A stretch of 64,000 nt of DNA, taken from a virus. Lineage: Duplodnaviria > Caudoviricetes. A program made the translations under genes and the position numbers. This document shows positions 19,826 to 46,577 of the stretch, piece after piece. The notes below the pieces were generated by a model. That model saw only the letters and a program-made list of their open reading frames with translations. It had not been told where the DNA came from and made no database searches. Positions within the stretch are counted from its first letter, which is position 1. Every line of letters starts with the position of its first letter. The stretch is from the IMG/VR virus record IMGVR_UViG_3300020112_001004, positions 48,403-112,402 of that record; one strand, 5' to 3'.

Positions 19826-22800
19826 TTACACCTCCTCCCTAGTTGATAATTTACTACATAATTCTTCAAGTTTTGCTATTCTCGCTTCTAAGTCGTCTAT
19901 TTTACTTTGTTGCTCGGTGATGGTTTTTTCTTGAATATCTATTTTTTCTTTTAAATTATTTATCTCTTTTTCTTGGTCTTGAGTAATATTTGTGAGTTCT
20001 TGGATAGCTAATGTTATATGAGGGAACATTCTGTTTGTTACTATTTGCATAATGTATTCATCTATAGGGTTGCCCTCTTCGTCTTTCTGTTGTATACTCC
20101 TAGTAAACTGTTTTGGCATATCTTGTGCTATATATCCAACGTCATTATAATTTTCATCCATATTGAAAGTGTAATGATTTATAGTATTAATCAACTCTAA
20201 GCCAGTTAAACCCTCTCTTAGTTCTTTTAATTCCTCAGATTCTTCATATTCTTCTATACTACCTCTAATAGTTTTAAAATTCTTCTTAATTTCTTGAGTA
20301 TTTTCCAACTCTTTTCCAAACAGTCTGTTTACACCTTTTAAAACAAGTGCCACATCTTGTTTAAATTTTTTATCTGAGACATAAACCCCGTCTATTCCTA
20401 AAGCGTGACCTCCAACTGCGCCTAGTTCTAAATAATATCCATTATTTCCTTGTATTTGTATAGTGTCTACTTGGTAAACGCCGTATGGTGTCGAACCAAC
20501 AACACGTTTATTGTATTGAAAATACATAGGACTATCACAGGATATACTTCCTGTTGAGGACAAACTGCCTTTAACAGTTAAAGCACCTGTTGAAGTTTCG
20601 TTTAGTTCAGTATATCCTGTATTTGATAAATAGGAACAGGTTAATCCACTAGCTGCGTTTACTGTGCCTAGGCAATTAAGATTCCCATTACAAGCCATAT
20701 TCCCAGTGGAACCTAGATAACTTGCTGTTAATTCGGCATTTTTCATGTAAACGTCGCCATTGAATGTGGCAGTGCCCCCAACTGTCATGGTACTATCCAT
20801 AACCATTTTATCTGTTCTAAGGTTGTGAAACCACCCTTGGTTAAATCTAGTATACTCTTTTCCTATTCCCCCGTTGTTGTCGACTACTGGGTAATAAAAA
20901 CCATTATCCCATCTACAGTTTACATTATATCCCACGCTACTAGAGTCTGTATGGAATATACAGTTATTTGATATATGAGTTCCTTCGTAGTTTACCCAAA
21001 AGTATTTGGCACCACCCACAGACTCTGAAATTATATCAAATTCTCCATATCTTTGGTCTCCTCCCAGTGCAACAATCATTTGAGCTGAACCAGCTCCTCC
21101 GGTGGCATAAAGAGAAACATAATCTGTTGAAGTCGGATAAGGTCTAAAGGTTAAAGAACCATTTAAGAAAGTGTTTCCGTCTATTTCAAGTTTTGATGTA
21201 CTTATTTTCACTGATTCTGCACTAGTGTTTATGCTTGAAATCAACTCATCTTTGCCAACCTTTTGGCTTACTGAAAGATTTATATTGTCTGCTGATTGAC
21301 TTATGGCACTGTTTACTTGAGTTATTGTTGGTCTATTAGAAACAGCGTCGTCAGCGTAGCCTTGTGCTTCACGTTTAGTAGCATAGGTGGCACTGAATGA
21401 AGAAGTTAAATTTGAAGCTGAAGCGCTTATGGCACTGTTCATTTCCAATACTGTTGGTTTATCCTCCACTGCTTCTTCGATTGACTCTTGAACTTCTGTT
21501 TTTGTAGCATAATCCTCTTCTAATGAGGTAGTAACATCGGATATAGCTTCATCTGTATAGTCTTTATATTCTTCTTTGGTAGCGTATGTTTTGCCAAAAG
21601 AAACTGTTAATCCCTCAAGAGAGCTATTAATAGCACTTGTTACATAAGCTTCAGTAGCAACCCCTTCTAAAACTTCTTGTTTAGCTTCGTCGGTTAAAGT
21701 TATATAAAAGCTTTCTCCATCAAACCCAACTTTTCCTCCAAAGTTAAAGGTTCCATCCTCCATATTAATCCATGTAGTACCGTTTAGAGAGGATAGCATT
21801 CCACTTCTTATAATGGCTGCGTCAAGATTACCTGTGGTAATATAGTCAGCTACGATTTGACCATCCATAGTTATGGCAGTACCGTACGTGCCATTATACC
21901 CCGTTGAAGAGTAACCAAACCCATTTGCATTCCATCTCCAGACATTCTTTGCCGTATCTTTATCGTCCGTGTCCATGATTAATATTTCGTTAGAATTAAC
22001 AACAACATATCCATTAAATCCTGTTCTAATTAATTCACTGGCATGGTCTTTTGCTGTCTGAAGGACTTGTTCCCAAGTATCGTCCTCTTTTATATCTGTT
22101 ATAGCATCCTGTATGTCATTTACCCTCTCTATCATGTCTTCTAAGTAGTCACCATACATAATCTCTGAGGTTAGAGTTACATTAAGTGTTAATTTATCGT
22201 CATAATCTCTACTGATAGAGGTAACTCTTGTGTCTATAAGTTCATCTGTTTGGCTATCCCATATTTTATAGCTATAATTTAAGTCTATTTCGGTCTCATC
22301 ATCAACCGAAGCCGTCATGGTGGTCTCTATTATGGGTCTTGATTTTTTTGCTAATTCTCTCTTTGTTTTATCTAAAAGTTCTTGAGCGTCCCCAATCGCC
22401 TCATCAGTAAAGTATTCTTCTCTATAAAAAATGGCAGGGTTATCTAAAATATAGTCTAGACTATATCCCAATTTTAAAAAATATGAATAGTCCTCTACAT
22501 AATCTTTTCCATCATTCAAGTCTGAAAAAGTAAGAGCATTCCCCTCTTCATCCTTAATTCCTCTACCATACATTCTTGTTATTATATCTCCACCGTCCAC
22601 TGGCGTATTTGCTATCAAACAGTTATTAACTACAAGTCTTTTACCATAGTTCATGTATATATCTATTGTGTCTTTTCTAAATATACACACAGCTCCCATT
22701 CTTTTGAGCATAGCCAATAGACAGTTCATAACAGTATCTTTTTCCCTTATATAGTAGGTCATTGTTATTCCGTCCATGTCATGACTGCCCACACTCCACC

Positions 22801-23670: not shown

Positions 23671-25581
23671 TTATTCTTCTGTAACGAAATATATTGTATT
23701 ATTATCTTTATTTGCTATTGCGTCATATTGTGCTTGAGTTCCAGTCCAAAACTTGAAATTATTCAATCTTGTTTCAACTTGAGTTGAAGTCATATAATCC
23801 CCACTATAGACAGATATTATAATTGGAGTAGTTGAATTAGAAGTGTTATCTGTATAAGTTTCTTTTATATATTGCCATAAATATCTATTAGTGCTCGAAG
23901 TTGATTGAGGAGTTGTTTTCCAACTACCACTAGTAGTACTTGGGGTAGAAGTTGAGTTGTTTACTAGGTAAAAATGTTCTACTTTAGATATACCTTTACC
24001 AGTATCGCCCTTGTCCCCCTTGGTACCTTTTAGAGAGGCTAGTTGGCTTTGGGTAAAATCTGAGTAAACAAAAGCGTCACCCTTATCGCCCTTCTCACCT
24101 TTAAGAGAGTTTAGTTGTTCTTGGGTAAAGTCTGTATACTTAAACGCCTCCCCTCTGTCCCCCTTGGCTCCTTTAAGATTATTTAATTGCTCTTGGGTAA
24201 AGTCTGAATAGGTAAAAGCGTCACCTTTGTCCCCCTTGGCTCCTTTAAGATTATTTAATTGCTCTTGGGTGAAATCTGAGTAAACAAAAGCGTCCCCTTT
24301 ATCTCCTTTGTCCCCCTTGGCTCCTTTTAAAGAGGCTAATTGTTGTTGAGTAAAATCTGAATAGGTAAAAGCCTCCCCTCTATCGCCTTTTTCCCCTCTT
24401 AAAGATTCTAACCACTCCTCTTGGCTACCTTTGAAACCTCCCATGACAGCTAATTCATAAGCCGACTTACCATCTATAACCTCGATTGGAGAACCATCTT
24501 CTTTTACAAGGACAGCGTCTTTTCCTTTAGGTATTCCAAGATTTAATTTATATGTGTTGTTTCCAGCGTCCACTAAAGTAGCTGTAGCATTCTCATTCTG
24601 TCCCAATCCAGTAACTGTTCCTATTGTCAGTTTTGGTACGTCGCCCGTATTACCCTTGTCCCCTTTTTCGCCCTTAAGATTATTTAATTGCTCTTGGGTA
24701 AAATCTGAGTAAACAAAAGCGTCGCCCCTATCTCCCTTATCTCCTTTTTCCCCTTTAAGGAAAGATAATTGCTCTTGGGTAAAATCGCTGTATTTAAAAG
24801 CGTCTCCCCTGTCCCCTTTTTCGCCCCTAAGGTTATTTAATTGTTCTTGAGTGAAATCAGAATAAACAAAAGCGTCGCCTTTGTCCCCCTTGTCCCCTTT
24901 ATCCCCTTGAGGGATTGAGAAATCCACGGTATAAGAGCTTGCACCAGTTTGGGTTAGTTTAGTTATGGCTTTTGAGCCGGATTGTAGGGTTTTAGTTTCT
25001 CCCAAAACAAAGGTTGGGGTATCTCCTCTTTCCCCTTTTAGAGAAGCTAACCACTCTTCTTCTGTTCCCTCAAACCCATTGTTATAAGCGACTTTATAAG
25101 CAGAATCTCCGTCGTCACCTTTTCTTCCTTCTACCACTGCTACTTTTTCCTCTAAATATTCTCTAGTAACATAATTAGTATTGGAGTAAACATAGTCATA
25201 TTCTTTAAATGTAATTGTAGCTAAAATAGAATAAAACACACCATTTTGGTACATATCCACTTCTGCATAGTCTGTCATGGAAACTTTGATATCTCCAACA
25301 TTACATATATCGTCAATAAATCTAAATACTTTTGGCTCTGCTGTATCTAACCATAGTCTAATATCTTCTGGGTCTCTTATTTTTTCAAAAAATACTTTTA
25401 TGGAAAACTCGTATGGGTCTCTAATTTTCTTAATAAATTGTTCCCCTCCAATGTTGGGAACTTTATGAGTAATAATAGTATAGGTAGGGGTAAGTTTATA
25501 AATTTCTTCGTTTTCAGAAGTTACCACGCCACCCATTTCAGAAAGCTTTTTTCTATTAAACATAAAATCTGTTATTAACAT
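23671..25581 (-). CDS. Distal tail protein (Dit-like) fused to collagen-like repeats
   Basis: Dit-like N-terminus directly after TMP; 8 copies of KGD(K/R)G(D/E)AFxY(S/T)DFTQxQL; WTGTQAQYDAI..KD..TIYF C-terminus; RBS favours 25581. Confidence 0.78.
   Translation of the reverse strand: MLITDFMFNRKKLSEMGGVVTSENEEIYKLTPTYTIITHKVPNIGGEQFIKKIRDPYEFSIKVFFEKIRDPEDIRLWLDTAEPKVFRFIDDICNVGDIKVSMTDYAEVDMYQNGVFYSILATITFKEYDYVYSNTNYVTREYLEEKVAVVEGRKGDDGDSAYKVAYNNGFEGTEEEWLASLKGERGDTPTFVLGETKTLQSGSKAITKLTQTGASSYTVDFSIPQGDKGDKGDKGDAFVYSDFTQEQLNNLRGEKGDRGDAFKYSDFTQEQLSFLKGEKGDKGDRGDAFVYSDFTQEQLNNLKGEKGDKGNTGDVPKLTIGTVTGLGQNENATATLVDAGNNTYKLNLGIPKGKDAVLVKEDGSPIEVIDGKSAYELAVMGGFKGSQEEWLESLRGEKGDRGEAFTYSDFTQQQLASLKGAKGDKGDKGDAFVYSDFTQEQLNNLKGAKGDKGDAFTYSDFTQEQLNNLKGAKGDRGEAFKYTDFTQEQLNSLKGEKGDKGDAFVYSDFTQSQLASLKGTKGDKGDTGKGISKVEHFYLVNNSTSTPSTTSGSWKTTPQSTSSTNRYLWQYIKETYTDNTSNSTTPIIISVYSGDYMTSTQVETRLNNFKFWTGTQAQYDAIANKDNNTIYFVTEE
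24000..24905 (-). repeat. Intragenic collagen-like tandem repeats
   Basis: Eight ~66-75 bp units in two blocks (3+5). Confidence 0.85.
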
Positions 25582-25630
25582 TTTTTCCTCCAATCGGGCA
25601 AGATATGTAAAGTAGGGGTTTTATCCCCTA

Positions 25631-28600
25631 CTATTTTTTCTTCCCTAACCTTCTTAATTCTCTTGATTGTTTTTGCATTAATTTATCTATTGCTTTATCT
25701 ACATCAATTTCTTTCCTTATGTCTGCGTCCACGTTGTTGTTAATTGTTATTTTTGGTTCACTAGCTACTGGTTTTTGTGGATTTGGTACACTATTGAACC
25801 TACTAGCTATTCCATTTATTACATTGTTTAATAAGGCATCAAAACTAGACATGTACTGACTATTCATGTTCTTATTGTCTAAAGCGGTTACATCAACGCC
25901 TCCATTAAAATCACTTAAAGACATAAATCCTTCTCCTAAAGGTTGTACCTCTGGCACTGAAGAAGGTGTATCTGTATCTACTCCAGTAGAATATTGATTA
26001 GTCATTTGTTGCATTGTTTCTAAATGGTTTTTATAATCTTCTTCTCTTTGTTTGTAAATATCTTTAAGTTTTTTCGTATCTTCCTCTGCAACGGTAAGGT
26101 CTATATTGTTGGTTAGAATAGATTGTTGCTCTATTTCATTAACGGATTCAAGGCTACCACCCTTGATTGTGTTTACAACATTACTTACGACATTCTTTAC
26201 GGTGTTTATAGTATTGTTAACAAAGTTGGTTGTTACGGTAATCGTTTTACTAACAAGTCTACCTATTGCACTTCTTAGGTTTTCAACCATACCAGAAGCG
26301 CCTTGTGCTGCTCCCCCAACATTGTTAAAGTTAGACACAGAAGCTCCACCATTATAGTTAGGTACATTTTGTAAAACACCACCATAATTTTTAACTCTGC
26401 CTCCATTTGAATCGGCTGCTCCTCCAACATTATTAAACTGTCCTACAGAAGCTCCACCATTATAGTTAGGTGTATTTTGTAAAGTACCACCATAATTTTG
26501 AACCTTGCCTCCATTGGTATCGGCTGCATTACCAACATTATTTAACTGACTTTGAGATTGTGAACCATCATAGTTAGGAGTGCTTTGAAGGGTACTTCCA
26601 TAATTTTGAACCTTGCCTCCATTGGTGTCGGCTGCGTTACCAACGTTGTCCATTTGACCTTGAGATTGTGAGCCATCATAATCTGGCACCCCTTCTATTT
26701 TGTTTCCAAATTCGTCAACTTTAGGTGTGGCGTTACCAGCCGAGGTTCCCACATTATCCATTTGACTAGAAGTTTGAGAACCATCATAATCTGGTACCCC
26801 TTCTATTTTCTTACCAGTCTCATCTACTCTTTGTCCAGCTTCTTCTGAACTAGTTGCAACATTGTTAAAACCTTGTTCTGTAGGTGCGCCGTTATAATCC
26901 GGTACGCCTTCTATTTTTTTACCAGCGTCTTCTACTTTTTGTCCACTTTGTTCAGCACTATCTCCAACCCCGTTGAATCCATTCATTATAGATTGAACTA
27001 CGTCTGCTGGTAATCCAAGACTATCCAGTTTAGCTTGAAGTTCGTCTTTAGAAACGCCACATTTAATAAATTCGTCGATAACTTGATTAATTTCATCAGT
27101 CATACCACTAGCAAAGTCTGGATTCGCTTTTAATTCGTTTAATTTATTTTGGAACTCTTCAGTGCTAATTTTACCCTCACCATAGGCTTGGATAAGTTGA
27201 GTCATTTGTGTTTTTGCAGACTCGGACAAGTTACTATTCATTACTAAACTGTTTAATTTATTTTGAAGTTCTTGAGTAGAAGTGTCACAGCTTTTCATAG
27301 AATCATTAATTTGAGCCATTTCTAGGGCTATCTCTGGAGCAAGATTAGGGTTCATTTTAATAGCCATCAAAGCATCGTTTAAAACTTTAGCACTTGCCTC
27401 ACCATTAACAAAAGCTTGTACCATATTTGATATTGACTCAGCAGATAGCGTACCTAATTGACTTATCGCCTCGTTGGATAATCCCATAGAATGTCCCATA
27501 GACTCTCCAAATTGTTGGGCAGTTATCTCACCTTTTGCAAATTGTTGTATTGCTTTTGTCATAGTTTGTTGGACACCCTTGTCCAATGTGGTGAAACTTG
27601 CACTAGTTGTCATTTCCATCATTTTCATACCCATAGCGAACTCTTGTGCTGTTACATTACCTTGGGCGAACTGTTGAACTAGGGAATCTAAAGCTTTTTG
27701 GGAGTCTTTGGATAAGACATTGTAAAATGATTCCATATCATTCTCGACAAGTTTAACACCTTCGGCAAAATCTTTAGCTCCAACGTCTCCTCTTTGGAAA
27801 CCTTCTAAAATAGCAGTCATGGCAGTTTGAGTGCTTTCTTTTAACTTACCCATGTTTTGGGCTGAGAAACTAGACATTGCAGAAACTGCTTCGCCATAGT
27901 CCTTTATGTTAACACTACCATCGGAATATCCTTTGTTTAATTTTTCTAGGCAACCACCGGCTGTTTGCTCTAACGAACCAAAGTCTAGTTTACTTACCTC
28001 GCAAAAGTCTTGGATAGCTCTTTTTCCTTCGTCGATATTTATTGCTCCACGCTCGAAGTCGTCAATCATCTTATTTATTGCTTTACTAGAAGCCTCTGGA
28101 ATTTCGCCTAGTGCTTCAACTTCTTCTCTTAAAGCTTTTGCAGTTTTACCTCTATATATTTCTAGACCTTCATATCCTTTAATAACGTGGTCTGCACTAT
28201 CTCCAACTTCATAGTTAGCTTCGGCTAGTTGCTTTAATAGGTCGTATTCCTTCTGCTCTGAGACTGATAGTTTTTCATTATTATCCAACTTGGCTTGATA
28301 TGCTTGTAGAGATTGCTCTAAGTATGTCTTTTCATCTTCTGCGCTTTTCTTTACTGTTTCTTTTGTTTTTTCAAGTTCTTCTCTTAACTCTTTAGCAGAT
28401 TTAGTTTTTGCGTGGCTACCTTCACCATAAGCAACTTTTTCGTCATCTTCTAGTTGATAAAGTTGGTGTAAGGCACTATCTATATCTTTAATTTCTCCAT
28501 TATATTCAGACAGTTCTTTTGAAGCTTCATTAACATTCTTTTTGTTATCAGCAAAGAATTTATCTGCTTCTTTGGCTGCTAACCTTTTGTTATTTTGTTC

Positions 28601-31600
28601 AGCTTCTTGTTGGGCTTTTATATAATTTTTTAGAGCGTCTGTTAAATGATTGATAGCATTTTCTTCACTGCCATAAGCACTTACAAGCTCTGGCATAGAC
28701 TTAACTATATTAGATTTAGCATCGGCTAATATTTTTGAATTTTCTTCATATTCTTTTGAACTTTTTGAATTCGCAAGTTTTTGCTCTAACTCGTGGATTT
28801 GAGCCAAACTTTCTTTAGCTGTCTTAACGTTATTAGCATTTTCTTTAGCAAGGTTACTATAGTTGTTCATGTTTTCTATAGTGTGTTTGTTGGTTTCCAT
28901 AAGTCTTTCGTCAGCTTTGGATATATAGTTATAAAGCTCATATAAACCAAAACCTACGGCTGCTATTGCTACTAGTAAACCACCAGCCATTAATGAAGAG
29001 GCTATAGTGGAAGCCTTAGTTAAAGTTTGTATCTCACCAGCTAAAGTGCCTAATATACCAACTCCAGAACTACATGCGTTTAAGAATGAGGATATTCCTT
29101 TTTCTGCTATACCAATTGCTGTTGAGGCTACTCCTATTCCTGCCCCAAAAGTTGTAAAGTCTATTAGTAGGTTTTTAGTACCGTCGGACATATTATTTAA
29201 ATTGTTTACAAAATCTGTAGCACCTTGAGCGAATCCTCTAAGTTTTCCCTCTATTAATTCACCAAATGATTCACCTAGGGCACTAACAGCAGATTTTAAA
29301 ATATCCATGTCTCCTTTTAAATTCAATGTGTTATCCTAAAAGCTTTTTATCTTTTAGTTCTAGGAGTTTCCTCCATTATACCACGTCGGTTCGTGGCTAG
29401 TTCAGCATATATCATCTTCCCTGTAGGGAAGCCGAACACTCGTGCAGATATTATATTCCTATTTAAATTAGGGTTCAATCTGTATGCGTTACGATGTTAA
29501 AAGATTTTAATCTTTTAATTATCTCGGTATTAACATATATTTTTTATATAAGTGTTACACTTTATAAAAAATACTTAGCCTTCACCGATATTGCTCGGTT
29601 ATTCGATACACATTACTGTGTAAAGGGACAAATTTTATCCAACATAATATTTTGCATGTTCTGTGCTGCACCATTACAGTTTTCAATAGAACCTGTTAAA
29701 CTACCAAATTCTTCGTCTGTTGCGTTCATAATCGCCAACAGACCTGCCATCAATTTTGTTACCGTAGAGGCTTTTTATCCTCTACCTCTAGGAGTTTCCT
29801 CCATTATACCACGTCAATTCGTGGCTAGTTCAGCATATATCATCACCTAGAATAAGGTGGTCGAGACTCGTGGGTGGATTATTGCTCCTAATTATCGCTC
29901 ACCACCTATGCGTTACAAAAAAGGATTAGTATTCCTCTCTCTCGATGTTAGCATATATAATTATTTAAATAACTCTTTTAAAATTATACTTAGCCTTCTT
30001 CGATTTTCCCGACTTATTCAATATATATTTCTATATAAGGGGGCTGACATGTTAACCCGTTTTACCAGATATTGTTTCTGCATTCTGCATTTTCTGACTA
30101 GCTGTTAGTTGACCAAAACCACTTCTAAGGTCTCCCAATATGTCACCAAGGTCTCTCATTGAGCCATCAGCGTTTTGCGTTTCTATTACTATGTCTGCCA
30201 TGCCTTCTCTGGTTAAGTGTATAGGTTCTGACATTTCTGTGAATAAACGTCTTAAGGCTTGTCCTGCTGTTGTTGATTTTCGATTTTGTTATCGTTAAGC
30301 TTTTTATCTTAACCTCTAGGAGTTTCCCCCATTATGCCATGTTGTTTCATGGCTAGTCCAGCATATATCATCTTCCTTATAGGAAGGAAATCACTCGTGG
30401 AAGTATTTTTGCTCTCTTAACGCTCAACCTCTATGCGTTACGGTGGTAGGTGATGTTCCTACTTACCTCGGTGTTGCCATGTTCTATATTATATAAAATT
30501 TAGGTTTTCACCGATTTTGATTTCTTTTTCTCATTGTATATTACTATACAAGGGGACTATTATGTTAATCCCAGCATTTGCCATTAGTCCTAATGCCACG
30601 GACACATCCTCTATTGAAAAGCCCAGAGAACCTGCGACAGGGGCACACATTTGGAATGCGTACCCTAGTTGTTCTACTGAAGTATTACTATGTGTCGCTG
30701 TTGTTGCTAAAATATCGCAGAATTTTCCCGCATCTGAAGCCGAGTAGCCCATTGCGGTTATTGCGTCCAATAGTTATTAACTCTAGGCTCTTTATCCTAG
30801 ACTCTGGAGGTTTCCCTCATTTTCATCGACTGGTTATCCAGTCCAGTTTAGACTATATCTTCACCCTTAACTTAATAATAGGGTGTCGGAGACTCGTGGA
30901 GGTATTTTTGCTCTCTTAACGCTCAACCTCTAGTCGTTACAGGGATTTATTGATTTTAAACCCCCTAGATGTTTACATATGGTTTTAGTATAGTTTCTAT
31001 ATTATTAATATCCCAATGTGGTATTCTTATTAGTTTTATATTATTATCCAAACAGAATTGAGTTTTTATATTGTCTCTTCTTTTTGTATTTGCTAAATTT
31101 TCCTCGGCTTCTTCTTGTGTTATTTCTCCTATAACCCAAGGTTCATAGTGCTGTCTACCATCAAATTCGACAAGTAGTTTTAAATTATTATCTTTATCAA
31201 ACACTGCAAAATCAAAAGGCAATTCTTTTTTATCTCTGCACTCTTTTATTTTATATTGCTGTTTAAAATTAATATTATTTTCTTGTAAAAAGTTTAAAAT
31301 TTTTAATTCTCCAAAACTTATTTTCTTCGTACACACGTCGCACCTAACTTTGTTCTGAGATTTTACTGAGTCCCATGTGGTACAAAATTCATTACCACAT
31401 TTACATTTAAACCTCATAAAAGTTTTAGCATTTACATATTCTGACGATAAACATGTTATATTTAAGTCTTTGCACTTCTCTCTAATCTCCTCTATGGTGA
31501 AAACACATCTATCTCTGGTTTTTCTTCCCTTACATTTTAAACAATTCCTTTGTCTACCATGTTTAACATCACTCCAAGTACGCTCGAAAATTTCCCCACA

Positions 31601-33423
31601 ATTACATTTAAACAACAATTTTTCTTTTTCGTTTTTATAAGTCTCAGATAAACATTCAATACCCCACTCTTGGCATTCTAACTTAACTCCTTCTATGGTG
31701 TAATGTTTTTTACCAGAGCATTCCGAACACTTAATCCTCCCATTTTTAACTTTATTCCATACTCTTTCAAACTGATTACCACATTTACACTTAAATTTTA
31801 GTTTGGTAAATCTGTCTATATATTTATCAGATAGACATTCTATTCCTAATTCTTTGCATTTTTCCTTTATTATTTCTATTGTTAATCTCACCTAATCACT
31901 CCCTCCATAGCATAAAATTATAACTTAAAAACTATAAACCACTTAGTATTTCTTCTAATATTCCCCGATATTTTTTGAAAAGCATTACTGCTTAACCGAC
32001 CAACTGTTTAGTCACTATATCTGATGCGATACCTAGGTCTAAATTCCCAGCAGCTGCCAAAGCTACCACTGAATCAAGGGCTGCCAACTGTTTGGAACTA
32101 TCCCAACCAGCCATACCCATATAGTACAATGCCTCCAATGTTGTTACCCTATAGGCTTTTTGTCCTATAGCTCTTATAGTTTCCTATAAGTTCGGCATAT
32201 ATCATCTTCCCAGTGGGAAGTCGAGCACTCGTGGATTACTACTTGTTGGTAGTAAATAGTAAAACTATAACATTATATTCTTTTTATATTTAATATAAAA
32301 AGTTTCAGTTTCTATGCTCTACACTACTAAATACTTTTTAATTTATTTAGTTAGCTCGGTATCACCATATAATATTATATACACTAAAGTATAGATTATT
32401 ACTTAGGTTTCACCGATTTTGCTCGATTGTTCGATATACATTACTGTATAAAGGGGCAATTCTACCCGCTTGAGTTGCACTATATTTAGTTGATGCTCCA
32501 ACTCTTTTAGCAGCCGATTCTAATAGTTGCATTTCTGAAGTTGTTGCTCCAGAAACAGCTTCTACCATGCTCATTTGAGCAGTAAATTCCATCATTTCGT
32601 TTACGGCATATCCAATACCAGCCATTCCAGCACCAAAAGCTGTTGTCATAGCAGTACCAAAAGCTATAGCATTATCTCCACTTGCCTTAAGTGACCTTGC
32701 CATATCTTCAACACTACCAGCTGCTGTTTTCGCCTCACTAGTTATGCCTCTAATTGCTGTTTGGGCTTCTCTTAAATTACCTGTTTGTATGTTATTAATT
32801 TTATCTGTAAAACTAGTAATTTCGTTCGCAGAAAGCCCTTTTAGACTTGTTACATACTCGGTTGCTTGAGTTTTCATCTGGCTTAATTGTGTGCTATTTT
32901 TAGCTAATGCACTTTCATAAGCTCTTTCTTTTTGTTCTCTAGTATTAAGTAAATTGTTGAATTGAGTTACGCTTGAGTTTAATTTTCCTCTTTCAGCCAA
33001 CTCAAATCCTACTGCATTTTGTTGTTTTGTTACAGTGTCTAAAGCACCTTGTAAGTTGGTTTTATATTCTCCTGTTGCACTTATTAAATTCTTTCTAATT
33101 GCAAACTCTTCATTTTGTAGTTTATTTAATTGTGCATATAAAGATACAATTTCATTTAATCCAGCTTTACTACCAGAAATACCGTCAGTGTCTAATTTCG
33201 AGCTGGTCGGAGTATCTGTGTTTATCCCAACATTAACATTTGCTCCAGCATCTTGTAATTCCTTAATTTTAGCCAAGGCATCGTCAAGATTCCCCATGTC
33301 CACGTCTACTGCCACAGCTATGGTTTGACCATCAAAGTTTTTGATTAAAGCCTGTAACTGGTCAGCCACACCAGCGTCATTCAACTCTACGGACACTGTT
33401 ACTTTTAAATCGCCACTTGCCAT
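25631..33423 (-). CDS. Tail tape measure protein, spliced from 6 exons (1772 aa)
   Basis: Exons 33423-32464, 32135-32010, 30767-30568, 30280-30055, 29750-29637, 29323-25631 join in frame (5319 nt), giving TP901-type TMP core: SATQAG|EALYYMGMAGW..SDIVT|DAITAMG..MANAGI|KSTTAGQALR..GKTG|MAGLLAIMN..MLD|NLKGD. Confidence 0.92.
26300..26920 (-). repeat. Six 36-aa (108 bp) repeats in TMP C-terminal region
   Basis: P(D/N)Y(N/D)G...NV(G/A) units at 36-aa period. Confidence 0.85.
29324..29636 (-). ncRNA. Group I intron 5 of TMP gene (313 nt, ORF-less)
   Basis: 5' exon GGAU pairs with intron GUCC (U.G); R GUAACGCAUA, S GAUAUAUGC; ends ..ACAUUG. Confidence 0.9.
29751..30054 (-). ncRNA. Group I intron 4 of TMP gene (304 nt, ORF-less)
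   Basis: 5' exon GGGU pairs with GCCC; R GUAACGCAUAG, S GAUAUAUGC; ends AACAAAAUUG. Confidence 0.9.
30281..30567 (-). ncRNA. Group I intron 3 of TMP gene (287 nt, phase 2, ORF-less)
   Basis: 5' exon GGGAU pairs with GUCCC; P AAAAUCGGUGAAA, R GUAACGCAUAG, S GAUAUAUGC; ends AACAAAAUCG. Confidence 0.9.
30768..32009 (-). mobile_element. Group I intron 2 of TMP gene (1242 nt) carrying an endonuclease ORF
   Basis: 5' exon GACU pairs with GGUC; canonical R GUAACGACUAG and S GAAGAUAUAGUC; ends ACUAUUG. Confidence 0.9.
30965..31891 (-). CDS. Intron-encoded putative homing endonuclease (3 Cys repeats plus Vsr/DUF559-like PD-(D/E)XK domain)
   Basis: Three CxCG..F...W..VK...CxxC repeats; SFGE, LPFDF, VEFDGRQH, DNIK..FC...LIRIP; RBS ggagg. 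Confidence 0.82.
   Translation of the reverse strand: MRLTIEIIKEKCKELGIECLSDKYIDRFTKLKFKCKCGNQFERVWNKVKNGRIKCSECSGKKHYTIEGVKLECQEWGIECLSETYKNEKEKLLFKCNCGEIFERTWSDVKHGRQRNCLKCKGRKTRDRCVFTIEEIREKCKDLNITCLSSEYVNAKTFMRFKCKCGNEFCTTWDSVKSQNKVRCDVCTKKISFGELKILNFLQENNINFKQQYKIKECRDKKELPFDFAVFDKDNNLKLLVEFDGRQHYEPWVIGEITQEEAEENLANTKRRDNIKTQFCLDNNIKLIRIPHWDINNIETILKPYVNI
32136..32463 (-). ncRNA. Group I intron 1 of TMP gene (328 nt, ORF-less)
   Basis: 5' exon GGGU pairs with GCCC; P AAAAUCGGUGAAAC, Q GAUACCGAG, R GUAGAGCAUAG, S GAUAUAUGC; ends AACAUUG. Confidence 0.9.
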
Positions 33424-33890: not shown

Positions 33891-34540
33891 TATTCACCCT
33901 TCTCTTCGGCTCTTTTAATTTGATTTTGCATTCTAGCTAAAATTTCTTCTGGAGTTTCTCCTCTTTTTCTTCTTTTTGGTTTTGGTGTTGGTTTAATAGA
34001 TTCTTGTTTAGCAATTTGTTCTTCTTTGTTCTTTTTTCTGTTTTGTTCTTTAACTATTTCTTTATTTACTTTTTCAAAATCTTCTAGAAGCTTTTTGTCC
34101 TTAGATTTAGTTTCCTCTATACTGTCAACGATTTCTTGTAAAAACTCCTTGTAAGTTTCTGAGCACATAACTCCTAAAACCTTTATAGCTGTTTCTAATA
34201 GAACACTAGGGTTTAAAGATACTTGAGCCAATATCAATCCCCTGTTTTCATCTTGAGGGAATTCTATATCACTAACCCTTTCTAGTAGGTCTAATATTTC
34301 TAAATTTTTTGTTTGAATTATTAGCTCTGCATTTTCTTCGTCTACCTTTTTTGGGGCAAAAATTTGTCTTGCTATTTGTTTATCGGCTGGTTGAAATTCA
34401 TATATCATTATTTTTTCTTCTATATCTGCATACTTATCAAAGTCCTTATCAACAACTAAAATATTGCTTTTATCTTTTTGTACTATTAAGTATTTAATTC
34501 TTCTTTCTTCTTTTTTTGCTATTAAGTCTATTAATTGCAT
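33890..34540 (-). CDS. Hypothetical protein (possible tail assembly chaperone)
   Basis: Between tail tube gene and TMP; function inferred from synteny only. Confidence 0.55.
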   Translation of the reverse strand: MQLIDLIAKKEERRIKYLIVQKDKSNILVVDKDFDKYADIEEKIMIYEFQPADKQIARQIFAPKKVDEENAELIIQTKNLEILDLLERVSDIEFPQDENRGLILAQVSLNPSVLLETAIKVLGVMCSETYKEFLQEIVDSIEETKSKDKKLLEDFEKVNKEIVKEQNRKKNKEEQIAKQESIKPTPKPKRRKRGETPEEILARMQNQIKRAEEKGE

Positions 34541-43589: not shown

Positions 43590-46577
43590 TTATATTCTAG
43601 AATTTCTAGTTGGAGCTCTAAATTGTAATAATTTAGATATATCTTTCTTTTTGTCTGGTTTGTTTCTAATTTGTCCTTGGCGTACATTTGCCAAGTAAAA
43701 ACAAAGTAAAGCTAGTACAAAACAACGGTCATCGTGGTACTTACGTTTCTCTGGTGGATATTGGTAAGTATGACCTGTATTTGTTGGATTATCTACCCTT
43801 TGCATCATATAAGCTTCCTCTTTAGCTAAATCAATATTTTTTAATGCTAGTGCTTCTTCAAAAGCAAGGGTATGTTTATGGTAAACGACTTCTCCATCTT
43901 TCTCTTCTGGTATCATGATATAGTCTTTGGTTTCATCAAATTCACTAGTGAACTCAACTAATCCTAAATTTATCATTTCGATTGCTTTATCAAACATTTC
44001 TGTCCTATATTTTCTAGGGTCTACCACCCATAGTTTTTCTGATGCGTTCGGGAATCTATGAAGATATTCCTCACTATATTGAGGGTCTATTATTCCCTTA
44101 TGTTTAATTCCGTTGGCGTCTTCCCAATCTTCCATAAAGTAATCTGGTATAATAGTTCCTCCACCACCTGCTCCAGCATCTACCATAAGAATTTCCAAAT
44201 TTTCATAGTCTGCATAACCTTCACCGTTGTAGTCTAGTATCATTTTTTTAATATATGCTGTTTGCTCTGGTGAACGCATTGGTGTTTTATTCTTCAATCC
44301 TATATCTACTAAAGACACAAAGTTTTGTATTCTTAGTTTTGTGCCTAACACTTCGTCTTCTATTAATTCTGCTACTCCAACAATAGAGTTATCGTTTGTT
44401 CTAGCTGGGTCATATGCCATGATTATTCTTCTTTTCTCGTTGCCCTCATTGATTAACATTGGTGGTCTAATTGCGCTATTACGCATTATTACTGAACGCT
44501 TAAAAGGGTAATCATTACCACCTTCTGTAGTAAACTTGTTATAGTATTCTCGTCTCGCCTTTTCTGGGTTGGCTTTCATTGCATGGTCAACCTTATCTTG
44601 AGTAAGTAATGGCACTGCTAAATTTTTACCATGATTGGTCGCCCCTATAACCATATCACATGATATATCTGCGACAAAATAACTAGGGTTTCCCATTAGC
44701 ATCTCTTTAGCACAGTTCTTATACATACTGAAAAAATGTGTATCGGTCGAAGAGGCTGAAGAACAATACAATATTTGGTTAGGTAACATTTTTGGAATAG
44801 TTCCGTTGTCTATACCTTTACCCATTTTAAAACTGGCATTTTGAGTGCAAAACGCTTCAGTAACAAGGCAATATTCCTCGCTTAAAAACCCAGCCTCGTC
44901 GTAAACGTTTAGTTGAGAACGCTTCAATTTGTTATCTCACTAGCTTTTTATCTAGTGATTCTTATGATTGTATTTCTCATAAGTTCGGCATATCTTTTCA
45001 CCTTTGGCATTATCCATTAAGGGACGGGGACTCGTGGGCGTGTTATATTCTATTAAATAGTTTCAACGCCTATGCTCTGCACGTGTTACTAATATTACTT
45101 AATAACTTCCGTTCTGATTAGCATTTCAGCTTTCCAGATTTTTCCCCGTTTTAATTTAACTATACATTTCTGTATAGAGAGGCAATACGTTCTTCTAAAT
45201 TATATTCTTTATAGTAAAATAATTTTTTTTCATGTTTCCTGTCTAAATAAACTGAAGAATCTTTATAAATATATTCTAAAAACTCATGTGTGTTTTTTAA
45301 TCCACCTATTCTTAGTCTATAATGATTTTTTTCTTGACATATATAAGATTTTATTCCTGCTTCGTACAAGATTTTTCTCAGTTGACCAACAAAATCTATA
45401 CTACCACAAGCAAAGTCAGCTTTTATGACATCTTGTGTGCAATTTTTAGACCTAGTTTTATCATGCGTTAAACATCCATCTCCATCAAAAAATCCTCTTA
45501 TAAAATGTCTCATTAACTCTTTCGGAATGTTTGGTAAATCTATCACTTTAGATTTGTTTGGCATCACCCCTTGGTTTACTAGGTGTTCTACAAACTGCTT
45601 TTTATGAATTTTTAAACAACACGTTTCATAGTCTTTATTTGTTACTTCTAAATGTCTTACTCTTCTTGTAGTATTAAAATTCCCATGTATAGATTTATTA
45701 AATTTTTTAAGATGATTTTCATCAACTGCTGATAGTTCGATGCCTAGAGTTCCACCTTTGCCAACCGAATATTCAACATATCCATCAGCATAAATAAATC
45801 CTAGCCAATAAGCTTTCTCTTCATTGTTTATATTTTCAAAATAATCTAAATCACAGGTATATTTAGTGCTTTTAAGTCCAAGCTTGTTCGCCTTAGTATC
45901 TATTGCACTTTTTGTCCTTCCAATTAATTCCCCTAATTGTTTATTTGTCATTTCACCATAATATTTTTTTAATATATTTATTTCTTCTTCAGTCCATTGT
46001 GTACGCATTAAAAATTTCCTCCTTTTGATTTAATCTAATTAATACGATATTTTTTAAAATAATCTTTACCTCTTAAATTCGTCTCGTCTCCGGAGCAAGT
46101 GGTAACACTACTACCATTAAACAATTTGAACGTAAACCCACTTGGGGCATGAATAAAACCATTCCCGTTTACTGATGGTTGTACCTGTTGAATCATAAAA
46201 TCAGTCAAACCCACCATTGACTCTATTTGCCTTAAAGCCATCTTTTCCATCTTCAAAAATGTATCTTGTGATTGTTGTGCTGTAACAGAAAGAATATAAG
46301 AAGTAAAATTAGGGAACAGTAACATTTTAGTAAATGTAAAAGGTGCGATATAGAACGACTTACCCCCGTTTCTCGACATCGTTATACAACTAAATTGTTT
46401 ATTCCAACTTTCAGCAAAACAATATCTTTGATAATCAAGGAATTCTATCCCTATTACTTCTTCGGCAAAAAGAACTGGGTTCTTTCTTCCCCACTGTATT
46501 AAATTGCCATATTTATCGTAAGCTTCTTTTTTCTTTTGCGATAATTCTAAATCTGTTTTTCTAACATAAAAGTCCAT
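43590..46577 (-). CDS. terL: Terminase large subunit, spliced from 2 exons (614 aa)
   Basis: Exons 46577-46068 and 44924-43590 join as NLRG|KRSQLNVYDEAG; Walker A SRNGGKS, Walker B YDEAG, nuclease YDPAR..D and HDDR. Confidence 0.92.
44925..46067 (-). mobile_element. Group I intron in terL (1143 nt) with LAGLIDADG ORF in P1 loop
   Basis: 5' exon AGAGGU pairs with GCCUCU at 45178-45183; R GCAGAGCAUAG, S AAGAUAUGCC; ends AACAAAUUG. Confidence 0.9.
45160..46008 (-). CDS. LAGLIDADG homing endonuclease (double motif) with N-terminal HTH
   Basis: KAYWLGFIYADG and HFIRGFFDGDG; own RBS aggagg. Confidence 0.9.
   Translation of the reverse strand: MRTQWTEEEINILKKYYGEMTNKQLGELIGRTKSAIDTKANKLGLKSTKYTCDLDYFENINNEEKAYWLGFIYADGYVEYSVGKGGTLGIELSAVDENHLKKFNKSIHGNFNTTRRVRHLEVTNKDYETCCLKIHKKQFVEHLVNQGVMPNKSKVIDLPNIPKELMRHFIRGFFDGDGCLTHDKTRSKNCTQDVIKADFACGSIDFVGQLRKILYEAGIKSYICQEKNHYRLRIGGLKNTHEFLEYIYKDSSVYLDRKHEKKLFYYKEYNLEERIASLYRNV

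Follow-up and report, generated by a model that had tools for sequence, protein, structure and literature searches.

A phage tail tape measure gene apparently split by five Twort-like group I introns

The split tape measure gene and its exons

The DNA analysed here is a stretch of 64,000 nucleotides (the window), corresponding to bases 48403-112402 of an IMG/VR virus record of 112,402 bases (IMGVR_UViG_3300020112_001004). The late genes lie on its minus strand, and they include a tail tape measure protein (TMP) gene whose frame, running from 33423 to 25631, is broken five times; window coordinates are used throughout, and all coordinates and checks on this gene refer to the minus strand. Removal of five inserts, at 32136-32463, 30768-32009, 30281-30567, 29751-30054 and 29324-29636 (introns 1 to 5, hereafter I1 to I5), leaves 5319 nt, that is 1772 codons and one terminal stop. 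Exon 1 (32464-33423; 320 codons) starts with an ATG at 33423 and ends ...GCGGGU; it is delimited by the open reading frame (ORF) list and the joined translation, and it carries positions 2-59 of the TIGR01760 model near its C-terminal end. Four short internal exons follow, of 126, 200, 226 and 114 nt (666 nt in total): exon 2 (32010-32135; 42 codons), with PF10145 positions 20-62 and a tblastn match to intron-free homologues; exon 3 (30568-30767), with PF10145 64-128 (E 2.5e-16) and TIGR01760 105-168; exon 4 (30055-30280), with PF10145 131-201 and TIGR01760 173-241; and exon 5 (29637-29750; 38 codons), recognised by tblastn with homologues and colinear with a contig from a relative, L040, which is described below. 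Exon 6 (25631-29323; 1230 codons and the stop) contains the end of the TP901-type core (TIGR01760 282-345) and then the coiled, repeat-rich ruler part.

The pieces follow one another as they do in intron-free members of the family. Pfam PF10145 tiles exons 2, 3 and 4 consecutively and NCBIfam TIGR01760 (tape_meas_TP901) tiles exons 1, 3, 4 and 6; exons 3, 4 and 6 each exceed the TIGR01760 cut-off on their own, and exons 3 and 4 that of PF10145 as well. The intron-free tape measure proteins encoded by Clostridium phage NatCom_42228, Ruminococcus phage NatCom_23091 and Bacillus phage KLEB30-3S (PV036444, MT136606 and PV036433) match the six exons in order by tblastn, and a multiple alignment with these three proteins runs ungapped through all five joints, which lie inside conserved motifs (TQAG/EALYYMG, DIVT/DA, NAGI/K, GKTG/M and MLD/NL, the slash marking the joint). 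The six exons contain neither stop nor frameshift and keep the conserved motifs of the family. From these domains and alignments, the host gene is identified as a TP901-type phage tail tape measure gene, and all five inserts fall within its conserved core of ~280 codons. An original prediction, made from the letters of the window, had proposed that excision of the inserts restores a continuous 1772-aa TMP with the TP901-type core running across every junction; both points are borne out, by the open joined frame with its single terminal stop on the one hand and by the PF10145/TIGR01760 tiling and the gap-free alignment at the five joints on the other. Its internal exon lengths and their total were reproduced, and the junction peptide that it quoted, ...YSATQAGEALYYMGMAGWDSSK..., is found in the joined translation.

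Architecture and kinship of the five introns

At all five sites the last base of the 5' exon is T and the last base of the insert is G (...UUG or ...UCG), and the exon end is predicted to enter a P1 helix of 4-5 bp with a terminal U.G pair (RNAalifold prediction and check). Applied unguided to I1, I3, I4 and I5, RNAalifold returned P1, P2, P3, P4, P5, P6, P7.1, P8, P9 and P9.1, with P1 joining an internal guide to the end of the exon, P2 bearing GNRA loops, P3 a long-range helix and the 3' end made of two P9 hairpins, one of them with a GAAA loop, plus the terminal P9.1 hairpin. P7 (GCAUA/UAUGC, the R and S elements) was added as a pseudoknot before pairs were counted. In this structure of 63 pairs in 11 helices, 96.7% of the cells are paired, as against 33-46% when the partners are slid by 1-3 columns; compensatory changes affecting both sides occur in 28 of the 63 pairs, as against 2-7 in the slid controls, and the observed covariation was matched by none of 500 shuffles. 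P3 takes four distinct sequences in I1, I3, I4 and I5, each of which pairs; P7 is invariant in these four introns, and in I2 two of its pairs are changed on both sides; the P7.1 helix has three fully covarying pairs, and the P9/P9.1 hairpins are present.

Taken individually, the inserts, which are AT-rich (30-36% GC), vary this common plan. Intron 1 (328 nt, no ORF, ending in G; 103 bits with the covariance model R1, described below) combines P1 GGGU/GCCC, a P2 with a GUAA loop, P3 UCGAG/CUCGA, P7 GCAUA/UAUGC and a single P9 hairpin with a GAAA loop. Intron 2 (1242 nt; nhmmer E 2.4e-21, R1 84 bits) carries an ORF and has the same helix set as the other four, with P1 UGACU/GGUCG, P3 UCGGGG/CUCCGA and P7 GACUA/UAGUC. 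Intron 3 (287 nt, no ORF; R1 98 bits) is inserted in phase 2, within an Ile codon, and has P1 GGGAU/GUCCC and P3 GAAAUC/GAUUUC; folded as a single sequence it recovers most of the helices (z = -4.5). Intron 4 (304 nt, no ORF; R1 115 bits) opens with an in-frame UAA and has P1 GGGU/GCCC and P3 GUCGGG/CUCGAC, and intron 5 (313 nt, no ORF; R1 106 bits), which is absent from L040, has P1 GGAU/GUCC and P3 CCGAG/UUCGG. Every intron has an in-frame stop 0-17 codons after its 5' splice site (intron nt 1-52), located before P3 in I2-I5 and within the 5' strand of P4 in I1 (nt ~52).

The ORF of intron 2 (30965-31891; 308 aa) sits in the P5 loop, with its stop codon within the 3' strand of P4, and is the sole ORF of at least 100 aa on the coding strand within the introns. 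It encodes zinc-ribbon repeats and a Vsr-like nuclease (phrog_559, E 2e-60; weak Pfam matches to DUF2726 and MTES_1575). PHROG 559 is an intron-encoded, Vsr-fold family described from the terminase introns of Bastillevirinae (Weglewska et al. 2025, PMC11878797). The product is thus a putative Vsr-fold homing endonuclease, and I2 would be mobile in the classical way. Inteins, insertion sequences and separate polypeptides were considered as explanations of the inserts and rejected, given the early stops and the endonuclease as the only ORF of that size.

The kinship of the introns was examined with the covariance model R1, built from their 3' domains (3' halves). R1 matches Twort orf142 I2 and I3 over the full model length (45 bits, E 3e-7) and the annotated gyrA introns of Bacillus phage AR9 at E 1e-10 to 1e-11, and an nhmmer profile of the introns also finds Twort I2 (E 3.3e-5) and both AR9 gyrA introns. 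When the introns are aligned with Twort orf142 I2 and I3 (alignment A2), their P1'/P2 and P7'/P9 segments are near-identical to those of orf142-I2, and the Twort introns are their nearest relatives. R1 has a further weak match in Twort (L009:19901-20007, plus strand; 20 bits, E 0.056), which falls after orf142 in the annotated coding sequence TwortORF125 (19849-20154). The AR9 gyrA coding sequence (L010; KU878088, 34696-37791) is annotated as a three-piece join, that is with two introns; both are found by R1 (E ~1e-10), and they reveal a blind spot of the Rfam model RF00028 for this lineage of phage introns. By architecture, covariation and homology to proven self-splicing phage introns, the five inserts are assigned to the group I introns, and they are filed as Twort-like and IA2-type, the subgroup label being given by resemblance only. 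The original reading of the locus as group I introns in a tape measure gene is thereby supported, and the signatures on which it had relied, namely a 5' exon U paired to G in P1, a terminal G, R/S (P7) elements and a terminal GAUAAAAAGC-type hairpin, are present in all five introns.

An intron-less relative, mobility and genome setting

A homologue search with exon 6 returned a single relative of the C-terminal part, protein P0001 (73% identical), on the Logan contig L040 of run SRR18398405, whereas a search of viral contigs with the start of exon 6 found no related locus and a homologue search with exon 1 found the window's own protein only, with nothing among longer proteins. Intron presence or absence can be read in a relative for I4 and I5 only. 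L040 begins inside the 3' end of intron 4 (L040:1-47), inserted at the same site and identical at 46 of 47 nt; exon 5 is then joined straight to exon 6 at the exact predicted borders of I5, the contig being colinear base for base with the in-silico joint of the two exons (94% identity across 220 nt). In this intron-less allele exon 5 ends in C, in the intron-bearing one it ends in U, and group I splicing requires a U at that position, for the U.G pair. A natural I5-less allele exists, with I5 present or absent between relatives at the predicted borders, and this polymorphism implies that gains or losses still occur. Exon 5 differs at six places between the two phages, and four of these changes are synonymous. 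The break of L040 inside intron 4 is an observation in its own right: similar introns probably broke the short-read assembly, and assemblies may contain fewer such multi-intron genes than really exist.

The five introns appear from their sequences to be old relatives and not recent copies. The four short inserts are ~70% identical to one another, and in a tree of the 3' domains (unrooted, weak support) the five introns fall in one part together with the TPWB06 and phiCP13O tape measure introns, on branches of 0.25-0.6; recent copying of one from another was rejected on account of this identity, the long branches and the foreign tape measure introns among them. The shared neighbourhood in the tree does not extend to shared insertion sites, as the phiCP13O intron lies ~8 nt downstream of the I3 site and that of TPWB06 splits PF10145 near position 86, so that both candidates for a common site were rejected. 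In Clostridium phage phiCP13O itself (L012:555-1650, JF767208), what the annotation lists as two 'minor tail protein' genes is actually one tape measure gene split by an intron of this family. Four of the five introns follow GG(G/A)U with GYCC guides. The ORF-less I1, I3, I4 and I5 were probably acquired in one of two ways, through reverse splicing at GGRU sites or through recombination during co-infection with phages whose tape measure genes already carried introns; the GG(G/A)U preference fits reverse splicing and, equally well, recombination between tape measure genes with adaptation of P1, as described for TMP-IVS1/IVS2 (Tourasse and Kolsto 2008, PMC2504315).

Directly downstream of the tape measure gene lies a tail-tip gene with a Phage_tail_C domain (23671-25593, minus strand), and an Amidase_3 lysin gene is also found downstream; upstream, on the same strand, are the portal gene (phrog_2739, E 7e-89), genes for virion proteins of the late module and two small ORFs. 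The nearest phage relatives of the portal are Brevibacillus phage Sundance and SPbeta-like phages of Staphylococcus and Mammaliicoccus, at ~30% identity. Since these are the relatives of the portal, the source would be a large siphophage of a Gram-positive (Bacillota) host, and the sequence places it as an uncultured SPbeta-like phage of roughly 150 kb without a close cultured relative.

R1 finds one further clear copy of the intron family in this genome beside the five, in the gene adjoining the portal gene, and no clear copy in the first 48.6 kb of the record. This sixth intron (44925-46067, minus strand; 3' domain 86 bits with R1, nhmmer E 1.4e-11) follows a 5' exon ending AGAGGU (46068), which pairs with the guide GCCUCU near 45183, and its P1 loop holds an ORF for a 282-aa LAGLIDADG endonuclease (45160-46008; PF14528 E 1.6e-16, phrog_4645 E 1.6e-51). 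Its removal gives the joined frame ...NLRG/KRSQLNVYDEAG. Weak PHROG matches to the upstream part (phrog_2, E 2.8e-4) point to a large terminase as the probable host gene; the downstream part gave no tblastn match among phages. Two weak matches beyond the six clear copies, at L042:9551-9656 (plus strand; genome 29351-29456) and at window positions 34084-34124 (minus strand), with E 0.073 for R1 and 0.086 for nhmmer, are probably due to chance.

The 3' motif of this intron family occurs at more than 110 IMG/VR loci. For instance, an unrelated 99-kb phage (L051, IMGVR_UViG_3300025087_000044) has five R1 matches on one strand (L051:3887-7757, plus strand), all inside a 3.9-kb stretch of an HK97-type capsid gene. 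The capsid exons stand in the order of an intron-free homologue (PF05065 pieces 26-79, 81-201 and 206-254) with HNH ORFs in three of the gaps, and four or five introns probably interrupt this capsid gene, of which the first, like the first exon, is weakly supported. A crAss-like major capsid gene (PF23898; L020:3483-5334, plus strand; IMGVR_UViG_3300016478_000246) is split at profile positions 285/286 by an intron of this family, and two more group I matches and then a tRNA gene follow that intron.

Interpretation and comparison with known systems

Taken together, these results lead us to regard it as very likely that five Twort-like group I introns lie in the tape measure gene and that these are spliced out to give one mRNA, although the splicing, its efficiency and the route by which the introns spread are inferred. 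Each intron RNA would fold into its own ribozyme, whose guide would pair with the final 4-5 nt of the exon before it, with the U.G wobble at the end. Free guanosine would then attack the U.G site, and the freed exon would in turn attack after the terminal G of the intron. Joining of the six exons would yield a single mRNA for the 1772-aa protein, at the price of five splicing events per full-length mRNA. Ribosomes on unspliced RNA would stop 0-17 codons into each intron and, in I2-I5, would leave before reaching the core, because the stop precedes P3. Only a few copies of the tape measure protein are needed per virion, and this low requirement may explain, as we infer, how a multiplicative loss of yield is tolerated.

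Several points weigh against this interpretation. The record is a metagenomic contig, estimated by CheckV to be 76% complete. An intron-less DNA allele is available for I5 only, the borders of I1-I4 being set by protein alignments and group I rules, and the P10 pairing is clear only in I5 and I4. RF00028 (Intron_gpI) has no match in the window at its gathering score, nor between 28800 and 33000 at E<=10. As controls, the same model found Twort orf142 I1-I3 at 64-101 bits (97-101 bits at the I2 and I3 sites) and missed both annotated AR9 gyrA introns, and two clear homologues of the five introns, the crAss-like capsid intron and a tape measure intron from a C. perfringens phage, scored just 34-37 bits with it and so fell short of its cut-off of 50. 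In view of the AR9 misses and of these homologues below the cut-off, the failure of RF00028 has limited weight, and a scan with this model alone would have wrongly refuted the group I reading. The Infernal scan with group I models that the original prediction had proposed as a check was divided in its outcome, RF00028 finding nothing and our own R1 finding all five introns as well as Twort I2 and I3.

A more substantial alternative is that the introns are real and that some of them depend on a protein helper or on conditions in vivo. We hold such factor-dependent splicing to be unlikely, though well worth keeping in mind: four of eight spliced Bastillevirinae genes were spliced only in infected cells (PMC11878797), and the introns described here are AT-rich with short P1 helices of 4-5 bp, but the four short introns have no maturase-like ORF, and the core is close to that of Twort orf142-I2, a phage ribozyme whose complex with its product is cited as crystallised in PMC3984707. 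The locus could also be a dead gene, its inserts being decayed, non-splicing remnants in a TMP pseudogene of a defective phage or prophage remnant. The predicted nature of the splicing, the loss of any endonuclease ORF from four of the five introns, the failure of Rfam to recognise them and the incomplete contig would all be compatible with decay. Against this, the core helices are intact in all five introns with compensatory changes, the exons are free of stops and frameshifts and retain the family motifs, most exon 5 differences from L040 (four of six) are synonymous, and the other late genes (portal, capsid region, tail and lysin) are intact, which together make this explanation very improbable. 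Scarcely credible, finally, is an assembly artefact in which intron copies of several phages were stitched together and no real genome holds all five; repeats do disturb assembly, as the break of L040 inside intron 4 indicates, but introns that are ~70% identical, with branches of 0.25-0.6, are too different for mis-joins, and the exons between them are unique and in the exact order of the protein family.

Whether the introns, in our preferred reading of five spliced group I introns, are more than passengers is a separate matter. The P1 site/guide pairs of I1, I3, I4 and I5 are interchangeable (GGRU with GYCC), which makes exon skipping mechanically possible, and the frame would survive the loss of exon 2 (126 nt), exon 5 (114 nt), exons 3 and 4 together (426 nt) or exons 2-4 (552 nt). 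Shorter TMP isoforms could arise in this way, or the five serial splices could tie full-length yield and tail assembly to the GTP level and to RNA folding; we consider either role improbable.

The consequences for annotation are immediate, as gene finders and the standard Rfam model miss the locus and would leave a truncated TMP gene plus small orphan ORFs, which is relevant to the annotation of large Gram-positive phages and to group I intron counts in viromes. A low-copy structural gene can, on this evidence, bear an intron load above the maximum of three per phage gene found in print, and the locus is at odds with a view discussed in 2025, according to which phage introns prefer genes of DNA metabolism and packaging. 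Its five related ribozymes, together with four exons of 114-226 nt, make it a small natural system in which one could test how tandem introns fold and splice in order without exon skipping, and the I5-less relative provides a handle on the spread of ORF-less introns.

Among the closest precedents are other tape measure genes. In prophages of the Bacillus cereus group, TMP genes have introns at the sites TMP-IVS1, IVS2 and IVS3, with at most two per gene (Tourasse and Kolsto 2008, PMC2504315). The present introns resemble them in the gene family and Gram-positive phage setting, in their assignment to the IA type and in mostly lacking an endonuclease, in lying in the conserved part of the gene, and in that related introns occupy different sites of one gene with the P1 guide adapted to each; they differ in that five are found in a single gene within 1.6 kb of coding sequence. 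The TMP gene of Vibrio phage ICP1 has four exons and three introns, whose splicing Barth et al. (2023, PMC10448857) demonstrated with RNA-seq and RT-PCR. By its published description it is likewise a multi-intron TMP gene with a homing endonuclease in only some introns, but with three introns, a Gram-negative host and HNH-3-type endonucleases.

The remaining precedents are in other phage genes. Staphylococcus phage Twort has three group I introns in orf142, a tail tube gene; like the locus described here, it combines several short ORF-less introns with short exons between them in a tail gene, and its introns are relatives in sequence and structure, whereas ours have longer, AT-rich P5 and P7.1 extensions and, unlike the three of Twort, are missed by RF00028. 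Tandem group I introns are reported to give exon skipping in orf142 and in a SIOphi polymerase gene (PMC11878797). Polymerase and terminase genes of Bastillevirinae contain up to three IA-type introns each (PMC11878797), and with these the present introns share the assignment to the IA type and a PHROG 559 Vsr-fold endonuclease encoded in an intron loop; in Bastillevirinae, however, introns were found only in genes of DNA metabolism and packaging, for which reasons are discussed (PMC11878797), whereas here they interrupt a structural gene of the tail. The L051 locus in public, unpublished data has the same intron family in what is probably a multi-intron gene, with the major capsid gene as host. 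The precedents named by the original prediction, group I introns in Firmicutes phage genes including TMP and three in one gene of Twort, are thus confirmed (PMC2504315 and orf142). Its further statement that no phage gene with five was known holds for the literature searched, in which no report of four or five introns in one phage gene was found and the maximum was three, and does not hold for public sequence, given the five matches of L051. The locus is an extreme example of a known phenomenon, with five introns against the three per phage gene in print, and not a new kind of system.

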